Source of the DNA: Candidatus Enterousia sp.
Lineage (GTDB): Bacteria; Pseudomonadota; Alphaproteobacteria; Rs-D84
Direction: 5' to 3'
NCBI GenBank assembly: GCA_045587125.1
Contig: JAZNBN010000020.1
Location: 1,796-65,795, forward strand
DNA: 64,000 nt
The position numbers were made by a program, and so were the translations under genes. The notes under the pieces are model-generated. The model was not told the origin of the DNA. It did no database searches and worked only from the letters and a program-made list of their open reading frames with translations. Below, one piece after another: positions 3,801 to 19,869 of the stretch (position 1 is the stretch's first letter; each line of letters opens with the position of its first letter).

Positions 3801-4682
3801 ATGAACAAAATAATATCTTTTGCTGTGCTGACGGCTGTATTGGCTGGCTGTACAGATCTTAGTCAGGTTGGCACAGGTGCCGCTACATATGGTACACCGG
3901 TGATGACCGAAGAGCCATTGGTTGCAACACAACAGCCAACACTGAATGACGCATATTTATTGGCGGCTGCACCGAAATATTACATCGGTAACGCGTACAA
4001 GGTTGATGATGTTCAATATATCCCAGTTGAAGATTTAACATATAATCAAACTGGTGTTGCGGGTGTTATTCCAACAGAATTGAACGGTACAAAAACCAGC
4101 AATGGTGAAGTATTTGATGTTAACCAAATGGTCGCAACCAGTAAAACATTACCATTGCCAACAATTGCACGTGTAACAAATTTGGATAATGGTATGTCTG
4201 TGGTTGTTCGTGTAAATAATCGTGGACCATTTGTAAATACTCGTTTGATGGATTTGTCACCTGCGGCGGCACAACAAATTGGTTTTAATGGCCAGGGTAA
4301 AATTCAGATTCAGGTATTGGGTGATCAAACAATGGCTGTTAAAAATGCAACATTGGGCGTAGTTACACCTCAGCCTGTACAACCACAACCTGTTGTAACA
4401 ACAACTGTGACAGAGGCACCTGTGGCTGCGGCACCTGCAACCGGTGCATACAGTTTGCAATTGGCTGCATTTTATGCCCAAGACAGTGCTGATGCATTGG
4501 CGAATCGTATGAAACAATATGGTGATGCCGTTGTTGTTAACGAAGATGATATGTTCAAGGTTCGTATTATAAACATGGATGCATCTCAGGCACGCAGTGT
4601 AATTGATACATTACGTTCAACTGAAGGTATGGCCCCAGGATTGTTAAAAGACGGTCGTTGGGTCAATCCAGACAGTATTTAA
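3801..4682 (+). CDS. rlpA: septal ring lytic transglycosylase RlpA-family lipoprotein (DPBB plus C-terminal SPOR domain)
   Basis: Lipobox LAGCTD. DPBB block (ARVTNLDNGMSVVVRVNNRGPFVNTRLMDLSPAAAQQIGF). C-terminal SPOR-like segment (YSLQLAAFYAQDSADALANRM...FKVRIINMDASQARSV). Confidence 0.75.
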   Translation: MNKIISFAVLTAVLAGCTDLSQVGTGAATYGTPVMTEEPLVATQQPTLNDAYLLAAAPKYYIGNAYKVDDVQYIPVEDLTYNQTGVAGVIPTELNGTKTSNGEVFDVNQMVATSKTLPLPTIARVTNLDNGMSVVVRVNNRGPFVNTRLMDLSPAAAQQIGFNGQGKIQIQVLGDQTMAVKNATLGVVTPQPVQPQPVVTTTVTEAPVAAAPATGAYSLQLAAFYAQDSADALANRMKQYGDAVVVNEDDMFKVRIINMDASQARSVIDTLRSTEGMAPGLLKDGRWVNPDSI

Positions 4683-4710
4683 AAAAATGCCCGTTTGGGC
4701 ATTTTTTTTA
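4683..4710. terminator. bidirectional rho-independent terminator (rlpA / rpiB)
   Basis: Hairpin ATGCCCGtttGGGCAT flanked by A-run and T-run. Confidence 0.6.
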
Positions 4711-9378: not shown

Positions 9379-10509
9379 ATGAAAATCTTTATCATTGCCG
9401 GCGAGGTTTCTGGTGATGTTTTAGGTGGACGTATTATGTCCGAAATGCCAGATGCTGAATTTGTTGGTATTGGCGGCGAAAATATGCAGTCCACAGGATT
9501 GAAAACCCTGTTCCCAATGTCTGATTTGTCTGTTATGGGTATATTAGAGGTTGTTGCACATGCAAAGACACTAACAAAACGTATTAAACAGACTGTGAAT
9601 GCGATTTTAGAAGAAAAGCCAGATATAATTTTAACGATTGATTCCCCTGGTTTCGCCAAAAGTGTTATAAAACAGATTAAAAAATCAGAATCGGGTAAAA
9701 AACTGATAAAACAAGGTTTGCGTTTTCATCATGTTGTTGCCCCCCAGGTTTGGGCATGGCGGTCAGGACGTGCAAAAAAATATGCACGTACGTTTGATAA
9801 ACTGTATGCGTTTTTTGATTTTGAAGTGCCCTATTTTACTAAATATGGATTGGATACGGTTGCGGTTGGTCATCCAATTGCAGATGGTATAATTGGCAGG
9901 TTCAAGGCGACCACAAATGAAGATGCGGAAAAAATAATAACATTGGTCCCAGGCAGCCGTATGTCAGAGGTAAAACGTTTGTTGCCGTTGATGCGTGATG
10001 TTATTGATATGATGTATCGTAATGGATATATGGGGTACAAATTTGTAATTCCTGTGGTGGAAACTACGGCGGAATATATTGCTGGGGAAATAAAAAATTG
10101 GCCTGTTAAGCCAATGTTGGTGCCCGCAAATCAGCGTTACGATGTTTATTCCAAAACCTATGTCGCAATTGTGGCCAGTGGAACTGTGTCCGCTGAGTTA
10201 GCAATGATGCATGTGCCAACGATTGTTGTTTACAAGATGAATCCGATAACAACATGGATTGGGCGTAGATTGATAAAAGTAAAATGGGTTTCTTTGGTAA
10301 ATATTTTATTAAATCGTGGTGTTTATCCTGAATTTTTGGGTGGTGATGCCGTGCCGGAAAAGGTTATGAACGAATTACAATTATTAACTATACCATCTAA
10401 GCGTCAGAAAATGATTGCAGATTTAGAATCTGCAGATATTCTTTGGCAAAAAGATAGTGGTGGTGCAGGCAAGAAAATCGCAATGGAAATACAAAAAATG
10501 CTTAGATAA
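9379..10509 (+). CDS. lpxB: lipid-A-disaccharide synthase
   Basis: N-terminus MKIFIIAGEVSGD and GT19-family pattern throughout. Start chosen at the internal ATG of ORF 9325..10509, which overlaps lpxA by a few nt. Confidence 0.85.
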   Translation: MKIFIIAGEVSGDVLGGRIMSEMPDAEFVGIGGENMQSTGLKTLFPMSDLSVMGILEVVAHAKTLTKRIKQTVNAILEEKPDIILTIDSPGFAKSVIKQIKKSESGKKLIKQGLRFHHVVAPQVWAWRSGRAKKYARTFDKLYAFFDFEVPYFTKYGLDTVAVGHPIADGIIGRFKATTNEDAEKIITLVPGSRMSEVKRLLPLMRDVIDMMYRNGYMGYKFVIPVVETTAEYIAGEIKNWPVKPMLVPANQRYDVYSKTYVAIVASGTVSAELAMMHVPTIVVYKMNPITTWIGRRLIKVKWVSLVNILLNRGVYPEFLGGDAVPEKVMNELQLLTIPSKRQKMIADLESADILWQKDSGGAGKKIAMEIQKMLR

Positions 10510-10528
10510 AAAATCTAAGCATTTTTAA

Positions 10529-12973
10529 TTATTCATCTGTTTTGGTATATATCCCTTGGGGCAATAATGGTGCGGATAATATGGCCTTTTCTGATGTTAA
10601 GCATTTGCCCTTTTTGGTATTGTCCATGAAAATACATACCTGGTTTTCATCAGAAAATCCAATCGCGTCTTTCCATTTTGTATCATAATATATGGTTTCG
10701 CATTTTGTAGATTTACCATTTTGACTGCGACGTGCACCATTTTCCCAACATGAACACATGCCCCATGATTCAATATCTACAGACAGTCCATAATCACGTG
10801 GACACATGTTTTCGTTTGTCTTATCATCTGACTGGAATATGCCATATGTACTGATGATTTCTTTATGTTCATTTTTGGTACTTACTGTATAGATACATTT
10901 ATTATCTGGGTTATAATTGCCAGATATAAATTGTGGTTCAATAAAACGACCCTGCAGGTTATTACATTGTGTTGATAATACAGACAGGATTTGATTATAT
11001 ATTTCTGTTGCAATACCTGTTGGACGTAGGTAACGTTGGTTGAATGATAATGATGTATCGTCATTTAAAATACCGTATTTAAGTTGACCTGTTGAGTTGT
11101 AACTTAAACTGTCACCGGTACCCGAGACAGGGACTTTGTCAAGACCACCAAACGTCTGTTCTATTATATCCTTGCATGCTTCTATATTGTCTAATTGTTT
11201 CGCACATGGAGAAGTAATATTTTTTATTTGTTGTCCGGATTCTTCTGTGTATGTGTACAATGTGAACCAATCTGGGGCATTGCCAGGCAGGAAAAGTCCA
11301 CTGTATGGGTAATAAAAATTCTCGTAATTGGTACCGCCGTATTTATCAAAGCATTGTTGTGCAACCGCACGGCATGCGGTTAAATTATCAGTTTCCGTTT
11401 GGGTGTTAATGTATTCTGCGATGATGTCGCCAGCAAACAGATTGTTGCAAGAATCTACATAATCTGTGCACATTTGTGTACTAAGTTTTATTTGTTCTGG
11501 TTTGATAACAATGTTATTATTACCCGTCAAAGTAGCCATTGCGTTTGTTATGGCTTTGTTACTGTTTATATAGCAATTGGATACAAAGTCAAAACATCCC
11601 TGTTTAATTTCGGCAACTTTATCTTTTTGTGCGTAATATATATCCAACATCGCTTTGTCCAGATATTCAGCCCATACATAATCTGCATTTTCTGTACACT
11701 TATCCAATGCGGGTTCTGCAAACTTTTTAACACGACTTTCAAAATTAGAAACGAATGTTCTGTTGCCACTGATTTTAGATAGTTGTTGATTTTGTAAATC
11801 TTTATCGGTACTGAATGTTAACAATTTTTCCAGATTGTAAAAATCTTTGACACCTGCGATTGGGGCACCGGTTGTTATATCTATGTATTCGCCATTGTCA
11901 AGACATCTGTGATAATTTGCACCACAGACTTCTTCACTAAGTATTGCCATTTCAACTTCGTTTATACACGTTGTTATATCAGAAGAGTTATGTTTTTTTC
12001 TGTTTTCTACACGTGCTAAATCCAACATGGCACTGCCCTCGCGGATGGCGGATTTTAATTGTTTTTGTGTCGTTTCAATTGCAGTTTGAACCGTGTTGCA
12101 ATCTTGTTCAACCGCCATCAGATATGCAGTAATGGCACGTTGTAATGATGCGTCGCTGCAGACATCTTTGACCGCCTGACGACATTGTGGGTATACCGCT
12201 TGATATAATGCCTGGCCATTATATGTTGCGATTACTTGACCGGAATCCGTCATCCCAAATGCATTCGCGGTATCAAAAGATATATTTATACTGTTTAAAT
12301 CAGAATATTTACCGCCAACATTTGTGTCTTCGCCACGTATGGAATTCATGATTGCCTGTAATAACGCCTTGGATGCGGATTTATCAGATGTTAACGCGGC
12401 TTCGCCTTCGGATTCTTGACGCATTGCAGATGCCTGGGCATATGTCATGCCGACAACTTCCAGATTTTCATTGAACGCTTGTAATTGGGTATTTGCATCC
12501 TGTAAAGTATCGCGCATTTTTATCATGTCAAATACGCGATCGTTACAAGAGCAACGACGATAATCGTCATTTTTTAACGTGCAAAATTGATCCATACATG
12601 TAAAATACGCGGTTTTGCATTGTTCATATGCGGCACCTGTTTTTGTTGTTGGTGTTGTATTGTCGGTTGTTGCACGTGCCTTGATTTTTTGTTGTGTTTG
12701 ATTTTGTTTTATTGCACTGCGTTCATTTATGTTTCGGTTGGGTTGTTTTTTATTGATTGCACGAACATTGGTTTCCGGCCCAATGGATGCACTGCGTGGT
12801 GTTAATATCGTTGCGTTTCTGGATGAAACAGATGTGCGTTTTTGCACAGAAGATACGCGGCTTTGTTGTTGTGGTTTTGCGGTTCTGGATAATGCGTTGC
12901 CATCACGGACCGCTGCATCGGCAATGCCGATACAGAACAAGAAATTCGCAATATAAACAAGAATTTTCTTCAT
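10529..12973 (-). CDS. secreted cysteine-rich protein, paralogue A of a lineage-specific ~810-aa family (CMDQFC...YRRC core)
   Basis: Signal peptide MKKILVYIANFLFCIGIADA, then a basic Ser/Thr/Asn-rich low-complexity segment, then a ~650-aa Cys-rich domain. Alignable by eye along its length with the 44653..47091 product. Confidence 0.7.
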   Translation of the reverse strand: MKKILVYIANFLFCIGIADAAVRDGNALSRTAKPQQQSRVSSVQKRTSVSSRNATILTPRSASIGPETNVRAINKKQPNRNINERSAIKQNQTQQKIKARATTDNTTPTTKTGAAYEQCKTAYFTCMDQFCTLKNDDYRRCSCNDRVFDMIKMRDTLQDANTQLQAFNENLEVVGMTYAQASAMRQESEGEAALTSDKSASKALLQAIMNSIRGEDTNVGGKYSDLNSINISFDTANAFGMTDSGQVIATYNGQALYQAVYPQCRQAVKDVCSDASLQRAITAYLMAVEQDCNTVQTAIETTQKQLKSAIREGSAMLDLARVENRKKHNSSDITTCINEVEMAILSEEVCGANYHRCLDNGEYIDITTGAPIAGVKDFYNLEKLLTFSTDKDLQNQQLSKISGNRTFVSNFESRVKKFAEPALDKCTENADYVWAEYLDKAMLDIYYAQKDKVAEIKQGCFDFVSNCYINSNKAITNAMATLTGNNNIVIKPEQIKLSTQMCTDYVDSCNNLFAGDIIAEYINTQTETDNLTACRAVAQQCFDKYGGTNYENFYYPYSGLFLPGNAPDWFTLYTYTEESGQQIKNITSPCAKQLDNIEACKDIIEQTFGGLDKVPVSGTGDSLSYNSTGQLKYGILNDDTSLSFNQRYLRPTGIATEIYNQILSVLSTQCNNLQGRFIEPQFISGNYNPDNKCIYTVSTKNEHKEIISTYGIFQSDDKTNENMCPRDYGLSVDIESWGMCSCWENGARRSQNGKSTKCETIYYDTKWKDAIGFSDENQVCIFMDNTKKGKCLTSEKAILSAPLLPQGIYTKTDE

Positions 12974-13108
12974 CTCTGGGTTAATCTTAGCAAAATTGTA
13001 AAATACGGTGCAAGTGAATAATAGGGTTAAAAAATAAAATTTATATGCATAAATAAATTTTTCTTGTTGCAATTATGTTGAAATTGGGTTATATTTCTTT
13101 GGCTTTAT

Positions 13109-13195
13109 GGGCATATGGCGGAATTGGTAGACGCGCTAGTTTCAGGTACTAGTGGTAGCGATACCTTGGAAGTTCGAGTCTTCTTATGCCCACCA
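13109..13195 (+). tRNA. tRNA-Leu (anticodon CAG)
   Basis: Cloverleaf with acceptor GGGCATA/TATGCCC, long variable arm, anticodon loop TTCAGGT, T-loop GTTCGAGTC, encoded CCA. Confidence 0.8.
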
Positions 13196-13205
13196 GAAGT
13201 TTTTT

Positions 13206-13281
13206 GGGGTTGTAGCTCAGCTGATAGAGCGCTACGTTCGCATCGTAGAGGTCGTGGGTTTGAGTCCCATCAGCTCCACCA
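13206..13281 (+). tRNA. tRNA-Ala (anticodon CGC)
   Basis: GGGGTTGTAGCTCAGC...; G3:U70 Ala identity pair; anticodon loop TTCGCAT; T-loop TTTGAGT; encoded CCA. Confidence 0.8.
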
Positions 13282-13301
13282 ATTTTGATAAAAAAGTCTT
13301 C

Positions 13302-13388
13302 GGGGATATGGCGGAATGGTAGACGCTGAGGACTTAAAATCCTTTGGTCATTGCGACCGTGTGGGTTCGAGTCCCACTATCCCCACCA
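13302..13388 (+). tRNA. tRNA-Leu (anticodon TAA)
   Basis: GGGGATATGGCGGAATGGTAGACGC..., long variable arm, anticodon loop CTTAAAA, T-loop GTTCGAGTC, encoded CCA. Confidence 0.8.
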
Positions 13389-13392
13389 GAAA

Positions 13393-13421
13393 TTAAAAAT
13401 GCCCGAATGGGCATTTTTTTA
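13393..13421. terminator. bidirectional rho-independent terminator after the tRNA cluster
   Basis: Hairpin ATGCCCGaatGGGCAT followed by T-run. Confidence 0.6.
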
Positions 13422-14546
13422 CTTGGTATGTTTCATATGTTGTTGCATAACCATTTTTTTGATTTTTGGATTCAGTTCATATACGCCACTTTTTTCCAAG
13501 AATTCAAACAGGTAATCGCGTCTTAGGTATAAGGTGATTTTTGGACCGCGTCTTTTATATTCAATCGCACCCGCAGGTAATTTAGATTGCATTTCTTTAA
13601 ACAATTGTGGCATTTGGCGAACATGGGTATGAAACATTTCTTCTATTTCACGTGCAGCAATCCAATTTTTATCGTCTTTGGTGTCGTATATATACAGACC
13701 TGTTATTGCACAAAAATCGTTCATGTATTCTTGATTCAGGCACAGGTGTGTTTTTGGACCGCTTTTTCTGAATTCAATTGCACCATTGGGCATTTGACTG
13801 CGCAGTTCGTGCAACATTGTTGGCAGATTGTTTAGTCTACGCTTTGTTTTTTGTCGGATTTCTTTGGCAGACAGCCAATTGTTATCTTTTTTTGGGATGG
13901 TTTGCAGTTTCGCAGCGGTTACAAAATCTTGAAGATAATCTTTGTGTAGGTATATTGTTGTAACTTTACCGCAAAGTCTTTTTTGTAATATAGATTTTGG
14001 TAATGTACCCTGGGTATACAAATCATTTAATATAGATGGTATTTTGTCATGTCTTATATGTAATTGTTGGGCGATTTCATGACTGTTTAGCCATTCTGGC
14101 GTTTTTAGAATTGATTTTTGTATTCCGGCGATTTCACAAAACATATCCAAGAAGTCTTTGTGTAAAACAAGTATATATTTGTTTGTATGTTTTTGTAATT
14201 GAATTGCACCTGGGGGCATTGTATGTTGGTATTGTGTTAATAATCCATATATTTGGCTGTGGTGTGAATGTAATATGTGGGCAATGTTCGTTGCGGTTAA
14301 GTAATTAGAATCAGCGGTAAAAGATTTTGATATTTGTGCCAGTTTGCAAAATTGTGGCAAATATTTGCGTTTCAGAATTAATATGCGGGGACCACAACGT
14401 CCAATCGGAGACAGTGTTGTTGCGTCCGGTGGTAACATGTCTTTGAAATGGCGTAATTTATCACGTACAGTGCGTGCACGGATGTTGAACATTTTTGATA
14501 TTGTATCAGGAAAAATGAAAGTATCATTGTTTTCCATGTTTTTCAT
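13419..14546 (-). CDS. protein built of five tandem ~65-aa excisionase/MerR-like (HTH_17-like) repeats; putative DNA-binding protein
   Basis: Five repeats with spacing W(L/I)xAxEI...LPxGAI(E/Q)xxKxGPKxxLxLxx(D/E)Y(L/M)xDF. The repeat tail resembles excisionase-type HTH (LPAxKIGxRWRIxxxDLxxFL). The ORF extends to 14567 with a TTG start; the ATG at 14546 is more plausible. Confidence 0.6.
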   Translation of the reverse strand: MKNMENNDTFIFPDTISKMFNIRARTVRDKLRHFKDMLPPDATTLSPIGRCGPRILILKRKYLPQFCKLAQISKSFTADSNYLTATNIAHILHSHHSQIYGLLTQYQHTMPPGAIQLQKHTNKYILVLHKDFLDMFCEIAGIQKSILKTPEWLNSHEIAQQLHIRHDKIPSILNDLYTQGTLPKSILQKRLCGKVTTIYLHKDYLQDFVTAAKLQTIPKKDNNWLSAKEIRQKTKRRLNNLPTMLHELRSQMPNGAIEFRKSGPKTHLCLNQEYMNDFCAITGLYIYDTKDDKNWIAAREIEEMFHTHVRQMPQLFKEMQSKLPAGAIEYKRRGPKITLYLRRDYLFEFLEKSGVYELNPKIKKMVMQQHMKHTK

Positions 14547-14560
14547 GTTTAGTCCTTTTG

Positions 14561-14595
14561 TTGACAAATTATAATGTAAAACTATCGTTTGTCAA
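14561..14595 (-). promoter_or_regulatory. consensus sigma70-type promoter (TTGACA-N16-TATAAT, minus strand) bracketed by an 8-bp inverted repeat TTGACAAA...TTTGTCAA
   Basis: Minus-strand read TTGACAAACGATAGTTTTACATTATAATTTGTCAA lies just upstream of the start of the HTH-repeat gene. The inverted repeat spans -35 through +1. Confidence 0.5.
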
Positions 14596-14675
14596 TATGT
14601 ATTGTTGATAAAAAATAATGCTAGATAGATATATCATTTTGTGGTATAATGTAGTGCGTAAAGGAATGTAGAAAA

Positions 14676-15029
14676 ATGAAAAATATCGTGAAATTTTTAT
14701 TCTTTTCGGTTATTTTTATAGGGGTATCAGGTCCCACAATGGCAGAGGATACAACTGTACCTGCGGTTGTTGAAACAGAAACGGAAACAGAAACAGTGGT
14801 TGGGGATGTTCTGACGGTTACCAGTCAGGATTACGTTGACACATTGTTTGAAGAAACACATAGTGCGGCAAATATTACCAGGGATACATTGGATACGGCA
14901 CGTTTGAATGTCGGACGTGAGGCAAATACTGTTGCCGCCGGTGATGATGGACGTTTTGATACAATGGTAATTGGTCAGCCTGATAAAGAGGCAGAAGAAG
15001 GTCGTGTGTTGGTATGGGTTGAACCATAA
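14676..15029 (+). CDS. small secreted acidic protein, unknown function
   Basis: Signal peptide (MKNIVKFLFFSVIFIGVSGPTMA), ETETETET repeat. Preceded by extended -10 TGGTATAAT and an AAGGA ribosome-binding site. Confidence 0.5.
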   Translation: MKNIVKFLFFSVIFIGVSGPTMAEDTTVPAVVETETETETVVGDVLTVTSQDYVDTLFEETHSAANITRDTLDTARLNVGREANTVAAGDDGRFDTMVIGQPDKEAEEGRVLVWVEP

Positions 15030-15091: not shown

Positions 15092-15409
15092 TTATCGCAA
15101 TCCTTTTGATCGACAACATCCAGATGCGGCGGCACGCCAATCAGAATATTCTTTGTTTGGGTTACGCAGGTCACGCCATGGTTGCCAACCACTGCAACGT
15201 TTGTTTGAACCTGTGCCAGAACATTTTGCATAACGACGCAGTGAACATGTTTGATTTGAAACTTTGCCTGTATCGGTTGTGCATTTTACAACAACATTTT
15301 GATTTTTTGCATCATTTTTACCCAATTCTTTGGACGATAAAACCTGATACGCGTTTGCGGTGCAAATTGTGCTGGTAGCCATAATAATTGCAAGTAGTAT
15401 TTTTTTCAT
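15092..15409 (-). CDS. small secreted cysteine-rich protein (105 aa), unknown function
   Basis: Signal peptide MKKILLAIIMATSTICTANA and 8 Cys in about 85 mature residues. Confidence 0.5.
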   Translation of the reverse strand: MKKILLAIIMATSTICTANAYQVLSSKELGKNDAKNQNVVVKCTTDTGKVSNQTCSLRRYAKCSGTGSNKRCSGWQPWRDLRNPNKEYSDWRAAASGCCRSKGLR

Positions 15410-15475
15410 ATTGGTGCCCCCTGCTTTGATTTCATAACTATTATAAAAAAATATCAGATAAAAAACAATGGGATT

Positions 15476-17140
15476 TTATTGGGGGTTGGTTGACCATGGT
15501 ATATCGTTCATAATCAGATAATATAATTCCGCATTATCTTGGCCTGGGTTACGTAATACGGGGCGTACAACAAATATATCGACATTACATGGTGTGTTTG
15601 TATTATCTTGGACTTCGGTTAAATCCTCATAAAACTTAGCAGCAAAATCCATGACTTGCAGATATGCGGCGTCGTCGTCGGTTGCATTGGTTGAATTGCC
15701 CATCCACATTAGCCACATACCATAATTTATGGTATCTTCTTGGCCAGCAATATCGTCTGCGGACAGCAATAACAAAGGCTTAAAATCGACACCACTGGTA
15801 AATTCGTCGGTACTGGTTTCTGTAAAGTCCCAAAACAGACCGCCAATTGTGCCCAATGCACCAAATGCCAGACTGCCTATGGTTTCTAATTTTGCCAATG
15901 CACCTGCATTTCTTAGTGTAGAATGAAACAGGTAATCACGAATTTGACCGGACAGTTTACTGCTGCGTCCCAGTTTGGCCGCTTTGTTTATTAATTTATT
16001 TCCTGAAAATGCTGCTTTGACACCCTTGCCTACACGTACAGTGCGTGCAAATATGTTTCCACGTTGTGCGATTTTGTGTAACGAGTTTACGCCACGCAGT
16101 TCATGTCTATATTTGTTTAATTCAGAATATGTTTTACTGGCTTCTTTATATTTTTTTACATCATCACTGTTTTCCAGTGTTTTTAATGTATCGTTTATTT
16201 TATTCAGTTCACGTTGTTTGTCTGCGATTTTTGCTGCGTCTTTTACTTTATCTAATGTTTTTATTTCATCGGCTAATTTAGCAGCTTGTCCGGATATCTT
16301 TATGTGATCACGGACAGCGTCAACGTTACGAAGTTGTTTTAATGTGGTTCGTAGACCTTTTAATGCACGTGCGGCACGTGGCGCCTTGGTGGCCCCCAAT
16401 ACAACTGTGCCAGTCCCAGCTGTTAATACAGTGATGGCGACATCCAGTGCTATTTCTGCATATCCAACCCATTCCAGGTTTTTATTGCCTGCAACGTAGT
16501 AATCGTTGGAATCATCTTTGATACTGACTGTTTGTATCATTGCACGATTTATTGCGTCTCCGTCACCTGTCCAGGCAGTTTCACTGGTGCAACTTAGACC
16601 ACGCGGATAAAAACTGTCGAAATTATCATTTATATATTTCATTGAAATTGTGTTGTTTTTATCAGGACCAACAAATTCATCCAGTGTGCCTGATTCAACA
16701 ACCATAATACCGTACCATGCAGGATCTGTATTTGTCCAAACAGTATCGCCATCTTCACCAATTTTTGGGTTGGGGTCACTGGACGGCAGACTTCGTTTTT
16801 GTCCCAATGTCAGCCGTTGTTTTAGAATTTTTGGTTGTGTTTCGTAATTTACAATTATTTCACGACCACCTGGGAAAGTGTATTTTATTGGTGCGAATTT
16901 AATTGTTTCTGTTTCCGGAACAGATGATATTTCTGGACAATTTAAAACCGATGATAAAACTTTGTGATTGTAAAAAGTTTTATATATCCATTCTTTGATT
17001 ACGTCTGGTTCGTCTTGTTCGGTAACTGTGTCGGCTGTTTGTGCCAAAGCGTTCGCAAAAATCTGTGAGGCACAAGGTGTGGCATTTGCGTTTGTAAATA
17101 TCATCAGAAAAAAAACAAAAAATATTAAATTTTTTTTCAT
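15476..17140 (-). CDS. secreted protein with central coiled-coil and glycine-zipper-like hydrophobic segments, unknown function
   Basis: Signal peptide MKKNLIFFVFFLMIFTNANA. Segments AITVLTAGTGTVVLGATKA and SLAFGALGTIGGLFW. Lys-rich coiled-coil. Confidence 0.6.
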   Translation of the reverse strand: MKKNLIFFVFFLMIFTNANATPCASQIFANALAQTADTVTEQDEPDVIKEWIYKTFYNHKVLSSVLNCPEISSVPETETIKFAPIKYTFPGGREIIVNYETQPKILKQRLTLGQKRSLPSSDPNPKIGEDGDTVWTNTDPAWYGIMVVESGTLDEFVGPDKNNTISMKYINDNFDSFYPRGLSCTSETAWTGDGDAINRAMIQTVSIKDDSNDYYVAGNKNLEWVGYAEIALDVAITVLTAGTGTVVLGATKAPRAARALKGLRTTLKQLRNVDAVRDHIKISGQAAKLADEIKTLDKVKDAAKIADKQRELNKINDTLKTLENSDDVKKYKEASKTYSELNKYRHELRGVNSLHKIAQRGNIFARTVRVGKGVKAAFSGNKLINKAAKLGRSSKLSGQIRDYLFHSTLRNAGALAKLETIGSLAFGALGTIGGLFWDFTETSTDEFTSGVDFKPLLLLSADDIAGQEDTINYGMWLMWMGNSTNATDDDAAYLQVMDFAAKFYEDLTEVQDNTNTPCNVDIFVVRPVLRNPGQDNAELYYLIMNDIPWSTNPQ

Positions 17141-18480
17141 TGTATTAAACTGTCGCATTGTTGTTGCAAAATAGTTATTTCATTTTGAATGCGTTGTATT
17201 AATGCAGGGTATGGGTCGTTTGGAACAGAACTGTCCCCGTTTATTAGACGCCAATTATAGCAAAAATTTTGTGTGTCTGGGATATATTCCACATATGCAT
17301 TTGCAGGTGGTTCACCGTTACAATATCTGGTGACGCATTCTGGCGCCCATGCATCATCTTTCCATAATCCATCCCACCATGATGCAGGTTTGTCCGAACC
17401 ACCCTGTAAACATTGACGAACCCCCGGACGTTTTACAGTCATTTTGCCATCTGATGATTCAACACCACAAAACATATATTCACCTATTTGTGCCTGGCGT
17501 TGACCCTTGTTAAAGGCGGTATTACAACATGTAAATAGACCAGTTTCTGGATCGTGCAAACAATCTGTTTCCGAGAATAATTGTGAACCTGCGATTACTG
17601 TACCAAGGACTGTGCCAACAATTGCACCAACACCATTACCAATTACAGGTACAGCGGTACCAATTGCCATACCTGTTGTTAAACCGCCAACTGCACCTGC
17701 AAAAAGATTGCCTACGCTGTGTTTGTCTTTGCCTGTGACGGTAGAGGCAACAGTCAAAACGCCCCCAACCCCTGCAACAGCTGTACCAACTTTTGCGGCT
17801 GTACTCATACCTTTCCAACCCTGGGGTGTAGTGTTTGCAGGTGCCTGATTAGTTGATTGGTTTGTGCCAGCACCTGTTTGAGTTGCAGCTTGATTCGTAC
17901 CTGCGCCCGTTTGAGTCGCTGCTTGATTTGTACCTGCACCCGTTTGAGTCGCTGCTTGATTCGTACCAGCACCTGTTTGAGTCGCTGCTTGATTCGTACC
18001 TGCGCCAGTATTTGTCCCATTTGGTGGTGTTGCTGATGACGGTGTTGTTCCACTTGGAAATGCTGTGCCGGATGTCGTAACATTAGGAGTTGTTGGTGTT
18101 GGCGCAGATGTTGTGGCAAATTGATTCGTACCTGCGCCAGTATTTGTACCATTTGGTGGTGTTGCTGATGACGTTGTTGTCCAACTTGGAAATGCTGTGC
18201 CGGATGTCGTAACATTAGGAGTTGTTGATGTTGGCGCAGATGTTGTGGCAAATGGTGTAATTGGAATTGGTGTAGAAGTTGGTGGCATATTTCTGATGTG
18301 GTCTGGCATTCCTGTGGTGCTAACGAATTGACCATTTACTGCGTTACGAAATCTGTTGTCTGGTGTTCTTATCAGTTGTACATCTGGATCATTCCATGCG
18401 GCACATAATGCGCTGTTTGTTGTCATCGCAACAAAACAAGAAAGCGCAATATTAAAAAGAAGATATTTTTTGTGTATCAT
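17137..18480 (-). CDS. secreted Thr/Pro-rich repeat protein with Gly-rich hydrophobic region and Cys-rich C-terminal domain
   Basis: Signal peptide. Tandem peptide repeats (QAATQTGAGTN x5 and a ~43-aa unit x2). GxxxG-rich segment AVGGLTTGMAIGTAVPVIGNGVGAIVGTVLG. C-terminal domain with about 10 Cys. Overlaps flanking genes by 4 nt. Confidence 0.6.
   Translation of the reverse strand: MIHKKYLLFNIALSCFVAMTTNSALCAAWNDPDVQLIRTPDNRFRNAVNGQFVSTTGMPDHIRNMPPTSTPIPITPFATTSAPTSTTPNVTTSGTAFPSWTTTSSATPPNGTNTGAGTNQFATTSAPTPTTPNVTTSGTAFPSGTTPSSATPPNGTNTGAGTNQAATQTGAGTNQAATQTGAGTNQAATQTGAGTNQAATQTGAGTNQSTNQAPANTTPQGWKGMSTAAKVGTAVAGVGGVLTVASTVTGKDKHSVGNLFAGAVGGLTTGMAIGTAVPVIGNGVGAIVGTVLGTVIAGSQLFSETDCLHDPETGLFTCCNTAFNKGQRQAQIGEYMFCGVESSDGKMTVKRPGVRQCLQGGSDKPASWWDGLWKDDAWAPECVTRYCNGEPPANAYVEYIPDTQNFCYNWRLINGDSSVPNDPYPALIQRIQNEITILQQQCDSLIQ
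17861..18250. repeat. nested in-frame tandem DNA repeats (about 33 bp x5 followed by about 130 bp x2) inside the Thr/Pro-rich gene
   Basis: Direct repeats visible in the sequence (e.g. cctgtttgagtcgctgcttgattcgtacctgcgcc recurring). The second block is duplicated nearly identically at about 17998 and 18128. Confidence 0.75.
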
Positions 18481-19367
18481 AAATATGTTCCCTTTAATTT
18501 GCATTTTGATAATTCAATATTTTGTTGCTGACATTGTTGCAGTGTTTTCAAATCTTCAACCAATATTTGATATTTTGCATTGGAATTTGTGCAATAAGCA
18601 TTTTTTTGTTGTTCAACTCGCTTGCGACGTGTAAGAAATTCTTCCTCTGATTCTATTTCAATTTCTGTGTATGCACGACTGTCTTTATATGGTTCATAGC
18701 CCTTGGTTTCGTTTGCGATGCGTTCCGCAAATGACAAATCTGCGTATGTGGCTGGAAAACTGGCACGTTGCAGGCCAACGTTGTTTGCACCATTTTGGTT
18801 TTGTAATGATTCCAGTTCGTTTTTGCGTTCCTGCATTTCTTTGGCCCATTCAGGAACATTTGGGGCAAATGGATTTGGAATGTTTATTCCCGAATCGTAT
18901 GCGTTCGGATTTGGTGCGGTTGCATTTGGAAAAGCAACATGCCCAGACGGACCAGATGTTGTATAGTTTGCCTTGTATTGTTCAAATGCACTGTCCAAAT
19001 ATCCAGAACATGACGATATATAATTGCCATCAGATATTCGTGACAGTTGTAATAACACAGCAGGTCTAATGTCGTTTAATGTGGTGCTGGCACAATTGTT
19101 TAACAGTGCACACTGGGAAATAATTAAATTATAAACGATTGTTTGACAATCTTCTGAATCAATCTTGGGACCAGTGGCGTATACAGGTTGTGGCATACGC
19201 ATGTTGTATGGCCCATTTGGATCGTATCCAGGTTGGGTCGAATATTTTTGTACGTTTTGAATAACGCCGTATTGTGAAAATGGTGATGGAGATGAGGCAC
19301 GTGACGAATATGTGCAAAAAATGCAACCTGTCAATAATGCTAAAATACTGGGGTTATTCACTCTCAT
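18477..19367 (-). CDS. lipoprotein, unknown function
   Basis: Signal peptide with lipobox LLTGC. Ser/Pro-rich linker. Acidic coiled C-terminus. Confidence 0.55.
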   Translation of the reverse strand: MRVNNPSILALLTGCIFCTYSSRASSPSPFSQYGVIQNVQKYSTQPGYDPNGPYNMRMPQPVYATGPKIDSEDCQTIVYNLIISQCALLNNCASTTLNDIRPAVLLQLSRISDGNYISSCSGYLDSAFEQYKANYTTSGPSGHVAFPNATAPNPNAYDSGINIPNPFAPNVPEWAKEMQERKNELESLQNQNGANNVGLQRASFPATYADLSFAERIANETKGYEPYKDSRAYTEIEIESEEEFLTRRKRVEQQKNAYCTNSNAKYQILVEDLKTLQQCQQQNIELSKCKLKGTYL

Positions 19368-19398
19368 CTTTCCTTAATTGATTCCCTGTTTTGATTTA

Positions 19399-19869
19399 TT
19401 ATAACAAAAATATGTTTGTAATCAAAGATAAAAATCCCCCAAATAAAAAGAAAGGTGCAAATGGAATAAATTTTTGCCTTTTTATGTTTGCCCAAATTGC
19501 ACCTGTGATACATGCAATGATCAATGCGGTTGCCATGCCGGTTATCCCCAACCAAATGCCACCTACCCCCATTAATTTTATGTCACCCATGCCAATTGGA
19601 GATTCTGAATTTGGATTTTTTTTGCGTAAAATAATGTCAAATATAAAACCGATTAAAACGGACATTGTGTACCCAAATATTGCGCCAATAACCGCGTCTG
19701 TAATTGGAATTGGAAATGCGTAAAATGTAGTTAATGTCAGACCGCACAGCATCAGTGGAAATAAATATGCATCTGGAATAATTCTGCGGCGAAAATCAGC
19801 AATTGAAATCAAAACAGAACATAATATGGCCAATATTAATAAAAATATAAAAAATATGTATGAAATCAT
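19399..19869 (-). CDS. A24-family prepilin peptidase, short CpaA/TadV type (no methyltransferase domain)
   Basis: 156 aa polytopic protein with the two catalytic Asp contexts (ADFRRRIIPD and GMGDIKLMG). Confidence 0.7.
   Translation of the reverse strand: MISYIFFIFLLILAILCSVLISIADFRRRIIPDAYLFPLMLCGLTLTTFYAFPIPITDAVIGAIFGYTMSVLIGFIFDIILRKKNPNSESPIGMGDIKLMGVGGIWLGITGMATALIIACITGAIWANIKRQKFIPFAPFFLFGGFLSLITNIFLL

Follow-up and report, generated by a model that had tools for sequence, protein, structure and literature searches.

The proteins closest to the one described here are small winged-helix proteins that work in series on DNA. BldC (PMC5859096), RdfS (PMC11963761), and Apl (PMC7498355) each assemble on DNA as head-to-tail multimers of a single Xis/MerR-like domain; like Xis, they are monomeric MerR/Xis-like winged helices, and their multimers bend the DNA to which they bind. 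Excisionases of phages and integrative and conjugative elements that belong to the helix-turn-helix (HTH) family HTH_17 (PF12728) are likewise single small proteins. Chains that carry winged helices in tandem are known from ScpB (two), the C terminus of SelB (four), RPC82/RPC3 (four), UFL1 (five to six), and the N terminus of Mga/AtxA (two), all of them built on the canonical three-helix winged helix and most of them acting as protein or RNA scaffolds or as PRD-type regulators. Here, we analyze a gene in a 64,000-nucleotide stretch of Candidatus Enterousia sp. DNA (assembly GCA_045587125.1, contig JAZNBN010000020.1, positions 1,796 to 65,795; the whole of this stretch is termed the window, and coordinates refer to it). 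The gene (13419–14546, minus strand) encodes a basic protein of 375 amino acids (isoelectric point 9.7) that consists of five tandem winged-helix repeats and a short basic helical tail, and its product is a new covalent tandem-array architecture of an already known DNA-binding fold. Our preferred reading, to which we assign a probability of roughly 55%, is that this is a vertically inherited chromosomal gene whose product, a chain of five MerR/excisionase-like modules, binds extended DNA as a regulator or architectural protein.

The repeat units are each about 70 residues long and are encoded on the minus strand in the order repeat 1 (residues 6–74; 14325–14531), repeat 2 (residues 77–145; 14112–14318), repeat 3 (residues 146–216; 13899–14111), repeat 4 (residues 217–288; 13683–13898), and repeat 5 (residues 289–358; 13473–13682), the last of which is followed by a basic tail of 17 residues. 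Pairs of repeats share 16–34% identity. Profiles built from the other four positions of nine orthologues recover each window repeat, with P values that range from 1.6e-9 for repeat 1, the most divergent, to 7e-26 for repeat 5, making the common ancestry of the five units secure. The repeat consensus can be written as W-L-s-a-x-E-I, a hydrophobic helix, (M/L)-P-x-G-A-I-x-x-x-K-x-G, and L-x-L-x-x-D-Y-L-x-x-F. An earlier note, made from the letters of the window, had described a protein of five tandem copies of one module, and these profile comparisons bear it out. That note placed a 376-residue protein directly after the third of a group of tRNA genes; the adjacency stands, but the gene lies on the minus strand, convergent with the tRNA genes, and measures 375 codons from its realistic start. 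This start is the ATG at 14546, which has an ATG at the equivalent place in all orthologues, while the TTG at 14567 used by the open reading frame lister falls within the promoter.

Neither the protein nor its repeats score above threshold with any model of Pfam, NCBIfam, PHROGs, or PADLOC. The top whole-protein Pfam match is DUF5997 (E = 1.1e-5; 25.9 bits against a cut-off of 27), which spans repeat 3 and extends into the beginning of repeat 4, is matched by one of 32 single repeats and, as a family of unknown function, carries no functional information on the repeat protein. All sub-threshold sequence matches fall in HTH or winged-helix families (HTH_Mga, TrmB, ScpB, Rrf2, DnaD_N, and TFIIE), the best being the HTH regions of AtxA and Mga. 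HTH_17, the family to which the earlier note had likened the module, stays below the Pfam gathering score throughout: the whole protein has no match to it at E ≤ 10, it is not among the matches listed for any of the 32 Enterousia repeats (one of which matches MerR, PF00376, at E = 0.065), and it is matched by one of 88 diverse repeats of the wider family (E = 0.0037), of which two distant members score 20–23 bits against the HTH_17 cut-off of 27. We also aligned the repeat profile with an alignment of nine bona fide PF12728 proteins using hhalign, which returned a probability of 76%, a P value of 2.3e-5, and a score of 26.5 over 51 columns. The alignment spans strand 1, both helices, the conserved (M/L)P, the wing, and the D-L-x-x-F C-terminal helix. 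Against the observed 26.5, 200 column shuffles scored 8.3 ± 1.8 (maximum 15.4) and the reversed alignment 12.7, these controls being column shuffles and a reversed alignment rather than other winged-helix families. Judged from such sequence comparisons, the resemblance to the excisionase/MerR-type HTH_17 domain appears real at the level of profiles and is too weak for formal membership, so that the likeness drawn earlier survives in the hhalign comparison and fails at the Pfam threshold. The two families share the order of elements, a similar size, and an alignment over all elements, but HTH_17 excisionases are single domains, whereas members of the window family carry 2–9 covalently linked copies, and the window gene has no linked integrase, attachment (att) sites, or mobile element.

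At the sequence level, a search of the PDB gave no match to BldC or Xis. Bromodomain matches in the PDB sequence search were dismissed as chance (E ≥ 0.017; an unrelated all-helical fold). Cys and His positions of the wider family (LCLH...FC) were also considered as a metal site, and this was rejected; by inspection they are not kept in the window repeats, and the residues therefore probably belong to the core in the wider family.

Structure prediction places every repeat in the winged-helix class. The AlphaFold2 model of the whole protein, computed from a nine-sequence alignment, has a mean predicted local distance difference test (pLDDT) score of 83 and a predicted template modeling (pTM) score of 0.41, the latter meaning that the arrangement between units is not defined by the model. 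A single unit with its preceding helix, modeled from a 32-sequence repeat alignment, reaches a pLDDT of 90 and a pTM of 0.74. DSSP assigns to all five units of the models the order short strand, helix, helix, beta-hairpin wing, helix. Repeat 1 begins without a preceding helix, and the unit order has no N-terminal third helix. This is the order of the HTH_17/MerR fold (a strand, the two-helix HTH, a hairpin wing, and a short C-terminal helix), and the HTH-like fold proposed in the earlier note is thus borne out in the predicted models. The absence of an N-terminal helix from the first module sets the protein apart from the multi-winged-helix proteins named above. No coiled coil or ligand domain is predicted, each repeat being a bare winged HTH plus one short helix; in this the repeats are again like BldC, a MerR-like winged HTH without coiled-coil dimerization or an effector domain. 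A Foldseek search with a single repeat gave no match at E ≤ 0.001, with best values of E = 0.11 (PDB) and E = 0.04 (BFVD) at a template modeling (TM) score of ~0.4. Its weak neighbors are all winged-helix nucleic-acid binders (TcpK-oriT, ScpB, SmtB/ArsR, AspA, MarR, the C-terminal domain of CodY, and 2kvv, a putative excisionase), and its viral neighbors are ‘winged helix-turn-helix’, Cox, Excise, and MerR-like proteins. The scores of 2kvv, Cox, and Excise are non-significant and equal to those of ArsR and MarR.

The repeat module defines a rare, unannotated family that is wider than the set of Enterousia orthologues. An exhaustive search of 1.84 billion representative proteins with the repeat profile yielded only 79 clusters, nearly all with 2–9 tandem copies, none with an informative name (‘hypothetical protein’ only), and so far from uncultured, low-GC metagenomic contigs. 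Among the representatives scanned, P0009, P0012, P0021, P0034, and P0038 carry a superfamily 2 helicase of ~470 residues (ResIII plus Helicase_C) N-terminal to 4–6 repeats, and P0071 and genes in loci L010 and L011 share this layout. The closest solved relatives of the fused helicase are the XPB/Rad25 DNA translocases, and the fusion of the repeat array to an XPB/Rad25-like DNA translocase argues for DNA binding. In P0009 (L006, 833–3649; repeats at residues 470–900) the helicase is followed by six repeats, some of them nearly identical, which points to recent internal amplification, in contrast to the old, diverged units of the window protein. Two genes of the repeat family adjoin directly in L013 (3–764 and 768–1832) and in L014 (2–652 and 598–1821), both metagenomic contigs, and paralogous arrays thus exist side by side. 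A parallel can be drawn with TAL effectors, the NUMOD/HTH arrays of GIY-YIG homing endonucleases, and other DNA-binding proteins made of tandem repeats, in that copy number varies from two to nine in the family and the P0009 array was recently amplified. However, a 70-residue winged helix is unrelated in fold and size to 34-residue helical hairpins, and a code of one repeat for one site is neither known nor shown for the window family.

These fusions also bear on whether the repeats might form a protein–protein scaffold, as in ScpB, ESCRT-II, UFL1, and RPC82, perhaps with the products of the neighboring operon and with no binding of nucleic acid. The best full-length Foldseek matches are to the multi-winged-helix proteins UFL1 (E = 1e-4), RPC3, and ScpB, the putative recognition helices are not markedly basic, and linkage to the operon is conserved. 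Those matches, however, have TM scores of ~0.1 and 8–19% identity, and the similarity to multi-winged-helix proteins is accordingly non-significant over the full length. The products of the neighboring genes are predicted to be exported, whereas the repeat protein has no signal peptide, and both the profile similarity to DNA-binding HTH_17 proteins and the DNA helicase fusions favor nucleic-acid binding. We consider a scaffold quite improbable.

Conservation of the gene is evident within its own clade. Only eight full-length homologues were found among 5.8 billion proteins, all of ~373 residues except for one 303-residue form with four repeats, and their contigs are Candidatus Enterousia-type metagenome-assembled genomes of the order Rs-D84, whose members have genomes of ~0.75–1.0 Mb and come from animal guts (PMC12306168). 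The ratio of non-synonymous to synonymous substitution rates (dN/dS) among orthologues is 0.15–0.36, indicating purifying selection, and each repeat position is kept among them, so the units are old and individually conserved. In the relatives the order of genes is gcrA, a peptidase A24 gene, genes for four secreted proteins, in most loci a gene for a 117-residue protein, the repeat gene, and the tRNA cluster. No relative found departs from this order, even where protein identity falls to 50%; each contig that reaches past the 3′ end of the repeat gene has a tRNA there, and gcrA lies by the operon in L001 and L004. Because synteny was sampled within one genus-level clade, the block could still be an ancient acquisition. 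The four-repeat form P0008 (L015, 5143–6054) lacks repeat 1, and its locus lacks the 117-residue protein gene and keeps the promoter and inverted repeat. Compared with its counterpart in L001 (10001–11119), the window gene (13419–14546) is 94–99% identical in repeat 5 and the tail and 68–75% identical in repeats 1–4, and P0001 and P0002 show the opposite pattern of identity; such mosaic identity suggests recombination between lineages within the gene.

Upstream of the gene lies a sigma-70 consensus promoter on the minus strand (14568–14595), composed of TTGACA (14595–14590), a 16-nucleotide spacer, and TATAAT (14573–14568). A motif scan shows that it agrees with the consensus at 12 of 12 positions and is the sole perfect site in the window, where 0.09 would be expected. 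The predicted transcription start is at ~14561, and the ribosome-binding site AAAAGGA follows at 14559–14553. The promoter is bracketed by an 8-bp inverted repeat: the upstream arm (14588–14595), TTGACAAA, includes the −35 box, and the downstream arm (14561–14568), TTTGTCAA on the strand of the gene, takes in the final base of the −10 box as well as the predicted start point of transcription. The repeat extends to 13-nucleotide arms at 85% complementarity. Seven of seven orthologous loci keep TTGACAAA, the spacer, and the −10 box, followed by TTTGTCAAC-AAAGGA and the ATG, with TTTGTCAAC invariant; the sequence of the spacer and the distance between the arms (19–22 nucleotides) vary. Both the near-perfect promoter and the inverted repeat around it, which the earlier note had picked out, are therefore confirmed and conserved. 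The downstream arm could be an operator or a start-site element. In other family members, strong promoters stand near the start codon without an inverted repeat, and L015 and L021 also have a perfect consensus promoter.

Further sites that resemble TTTGTCAAC occur around the promoter. Four sites with at most one mismatch (14560, 14588, 14604, and 14835) fall within 284 bp (14560–14843), where ~0.15 would be expected from the window-wide density, and only the first two are kept in relatives. A third nearby copy of the motif (14604–14612) was considered as an operator and discarded because it is not kept in L001 or L004.

Taken together with the properties of BldC, Xis, Apl, and RdfS, these features suggest a model for how the repeat protein would act. 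A covalent head-to-tail chain of five diverged winged HTH modules, joined by linkers of a few residues, would lie along double-stranded DNA with each module contacting about one helical turn, so that 50–70 bp in total would be covered and bent. The protein would thus be a single-polypeptide version of the cooperative head-to-tail filaments built from Xis, Apl, RdfS, and BldC monomers, the difference being that its predicted DNA-binding oligomer would be covalent and fixed at five diverged units. Expression would be from the consensus sigma-70 promoter, where overlap of TTGACAAA/TTTGTCAA with the −35 box and the transcription start may permit autorepression or control by another factor. The likeliest targets would be its own promoter, the divergent gene for the 117-residue protein, and the neighboring operon for secreted proteins.

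Several observations weigh against this interpretation. No target site was found for the putative DNA-binding activity of the repeat protein, and the motifs TTGACAAA and TTTGTCAAC are not enriched within the window. The array of direct repeats that the earlier note expected as a target did not materialize: between 12.9 and 20 kb, no direct DNA repeat array was found near the gene except for coding repeats of a 455-codon gene, although identical direct repeats are not to be expected of units as diverged as these. An arm spacing that varies between 19 and 22 nucleotides is a poor fit to a rigid operator, and the conserved downstream arm could be merely a start-site and leader element. The single-repeat structural matches are all non-significant (E ≥ 0.04, TM ~0.4), the geometry between repeats is not confidently predicted (pTM 0.41), and the putative recognition helices lack a marked basic character. 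Linkage to the operon is seen within one genus only, where simple inheritance may suffice to explain it. Finally, some winged helices in tandem have RNA or proteins as their ligands.

The strength of the promoter raises the alternative of an abundant protein with low sequence specificity that serves a reduced genome in a general nucleoid-associated role rather than as a dedicated regulator. A perfect promoter and a strong ribosome-binding site imply high expression, the L021 family member also has a perfect consensus promoter, the window protein is basic, the genomes of the clade are reduced (PMC12306168), and RdfS-type filaments recognize DNA without a consensus motif (PMC11963761). On the other hand, the repeats are strongly diverged yet each is conserved across orthologues, pointing to position-specific contacts; the family numbers only 79 clusters and is rare and patchy in its occurrence; and one related family context contains a gene for HU. 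We regard a general nucleoid role as fairly unlikely.

The repeat gene converges on a cluster of three tRNA genes on the plus strand, which ARAGORN and Rfam identify as tRNA-Leu (anticodon CAG; 13109–13195; 52.7 bits in Rfam), tRNA-Ala (anticodon CGC; 13206–13281), and tRNA-Leu (anticodon TAA; 13302–13388), the last tRNA of the window cluster; the Leu-Ala-Leu order recorded in the earlier note was correct. Beyond these tRNAs, Rfam detects no non-coding RNA in the region. The gap of 30 bp between tRNA-Leu(TAA) and the repeat gene is filled by a palindromic hairpin flanked by A- and T-runs (13395–13418; terminator scan and sequence), which is likely a two-way terminator common to the cluster and the converging gene. 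A 26-nucleotide copy of this hairpin (13395–13420), 92% identical, lies ~8.7 kb away at 4681–4708 and may represent a reused terminator element. In the P0006 lineage (L016 and L017; 1825–2287) the cluster reads Leu(CAG)-Ala(CGC)-Leu(TAA)-Val(CAC), and tRNA-Val adjoins the repeat gene; the fourth of these tRNAs is missing from the window and from L001, and tRNA-Val(CAC) was apparently lost or moved in the lineage of the window.

This tail-to-tail arrangement recurs in the wider family. A convergent tRNA lies within 200 bp downstream in three of ~13 independent contexts, namely, this clade (Leu or Val), L010 (Ser-TGA), and L021 (Gly-CCC), for which a rough post hoc estimate gives P ~0.01–0.02. 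The array might then bind RNA or tRNA-gene DNA, or act on the expression or processing of tRNAs, which would explain the adjacency. The recurrence and the basic character of the protein (pI 9.7) are compatible with such a role, and tandem winged helices can bind RNA, as do the C-terminal domains of SelB. Yet the adjacency statistic is post hoc and weak, the tRNA differs from context to context (Leu or Val, Ser, Gly), no tRNA adjoins the majority of family members, the fused helicase resembles XPB-like translocases of double-stranded DNA, and no RNA-binding family is matched. A role in RNA binding or tRNA biology is, in our estimation, a decidedly improbable explanation.

Adjacency to a tRNA 3′ end had led the earlier note to a different view, in which the protein is an excisionase-like recombination directionality factor at the left edge of an old island (13.4–19.9 kb) that entered the chromosome at the tRNA-Leu(TAA) 3′ end, carrying the secreted-protein operon as cargo. 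The module does resemble HTH_17 excisionase-family domains, with sub-threshold HTH_17 matches from distant members; the 3′ end of the repeat gene faces the 3′ end of the tRNA; and the operon genes belong to no known families. In L010 and L021, which are unrelated contexts, the family gene also faces a tRNA 3′ end, with a direct copy of that end in between: L010 has a perfect 19-nucleotide direct copy of the tRNA-Ser 3′ end (10789–10807 and 10954–10972) and L021 a perfect 17-nucleotide copy of the tRNA-Gly 3′ end (10359–10375 and 10522–10538), each ~145 nucleotides from the intact tRNA. Each copy resembles a scar left by integration or a tRNA duplicate that has decayed. They sit between the tRNA and the family gene, just past the terminator of the latter, so that the family gene is outside the repeat-bounded segment and the copies do not make it island cargo.

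At the window locus itself, the tests for an island were all negative. No gene between 10.5 and 20.6 kb encodes a recombinase domain, and neither the called genes of L001, L003, L004, and L015 nor the six longer contexts of other family members have an integrase or other recombinase on record. The 26-mer at the 3′ end of tRNA-Leu(TAA) has no second copy in the window at up to three mismatches, a short-word BLAST with the whole tRNA cluster as query found nothing in the window near 19.9 kb, and the candidate direct repeat at ~19.88 kb, within the interval of 19.87–19.94 kb singled out earlier, does not rise above chance. Likewise, L003, L015, and L016 contain no copy of the tRNA-Val 3′ end, and L001, L003, L015, and L016 contain no att-like repeat. 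The composition of the block is typical of the window: its GC content is 0.39 against a window-wide range of 0.35–0.43, GC at third codon positions is 0.26–0.31 against 0.313 ± 0.038, and its tetranucleotide distance is 0.134 against 0.125 ± 0.013 in sliding windows, of which 22% are at least as deviant. Gene order is kept in all relatives, no empty site occurs among the relatives recovered, and the tRNA-Val that intervenes in L016 and L017 shows that the junction with the 3′ end of tRNA-Leu(TAA) is not conserved. Selection on the repeat gene is purifying (dN/dS 0.15–0.36), and tblastn finds no homologue in 50,697 phage or 72,556 plasmid records. To our knowledge, recombination directionality factors are single-domain proteins of ~55–120 residues that act as non-covalent multimers, unlike a 375-residue chain of five covalently linked domains. 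The interpretation as a directionality factor left by an old island is not supported, is largely refuted, and is highly improbable; the repeat gene belongs to the conserved chromosome. Other family members, in their longer contexts, likewise have ordinary chromosomal surroundings, with genes for ribosomal proteins, DnaK, HU, LpxI, and glycosyltransferases.

On its other side, the repeat gene is flanked by the divergent gene for the 117-residue protein (14676–15029, plus strand), which encodes a signal peptide and matches no family. Its promoter (14622–14650, plus strand), supported by blocks conserved in the orthologues, consists of TAGATA, a 17-nucleotide spacer, and TATAAT with a TG extension. 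This gene is present in most orthologous loci and missing in L015, and the repeat protein may target it. Beyond it lies an operon on the minus strand (15092–19869) for a prepilin-type peptidase A24 (156 residues) and proteins of 296, 455, 560, and 105 residues. The latter four have predicted signal peptides and no family matches, and some are cysteine-rich; the peptidase is the recognizable gene of the block, and GcrA that outside it. The operon is linked to the repeat gene in every relative recovered, and the two may be functionally connected.

Proteins with signal peptides and without Pfam matches are more widespread in this part of the window, where those of 847, 560, 455, 296, and 105 residues, several of them cysteine-rich, are encoded in 10529–13072 (minus strand) and 15092–19367. 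The run sits behind the short TadV/CpaA-type prepilin peptidase (A24, 156 residues), and no recognizable pilin or secretion genes were found near it. The gene for the 455-residue protein (17137–18504, minus strand) contains tandem DNA repeats at 17870–18253 (33 bp in 4.1 copies and 132 bp in two copies), which encode Thr/Pro/Asn/Gln-rich peptide repeats; in the protein, which has a predicted signal peptide, these are followed by a glycine-rich hydrophobic segment and a cysteine-rich C terminus.

Exclusion of an island remnant prevents a wrong mobile-element annotation for this tRNA-adjacent gene. In a genome of ~0.9 Mb, a conserved putative DNA-binding protein of 375 residues is likely to be functionally important. 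If our reading of it as an extended DNA-binding chain is correct, the five fused units would be a fixed-stoichiometry version of the Xis/Apl/RdfS/BldC filament, with relatives of up to nine units, and could reveal the share of each unit in recognizing and bending long DNA targets; the helicase fusions offer a second testable architecture of the same array. A broader proposal, speculative and unlikely as it stands, is that the family forms an unrecognized class of modular DNA readers, covalent Xis/BldC-like arrays of 2–9 units that would each read about one helical turn and in which array length and unit order would set a composite target. Some of these arrays would steer an XPB-like translocase to specific loci, and others, including that of the window, placed tail to tail with tRNA genes, might mark or insulate the tRNA loci in extremely reduced genomes. 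Were this modular reading of DNA, or the link to tRNA genes, to prove true, the significance of the family would be greater.

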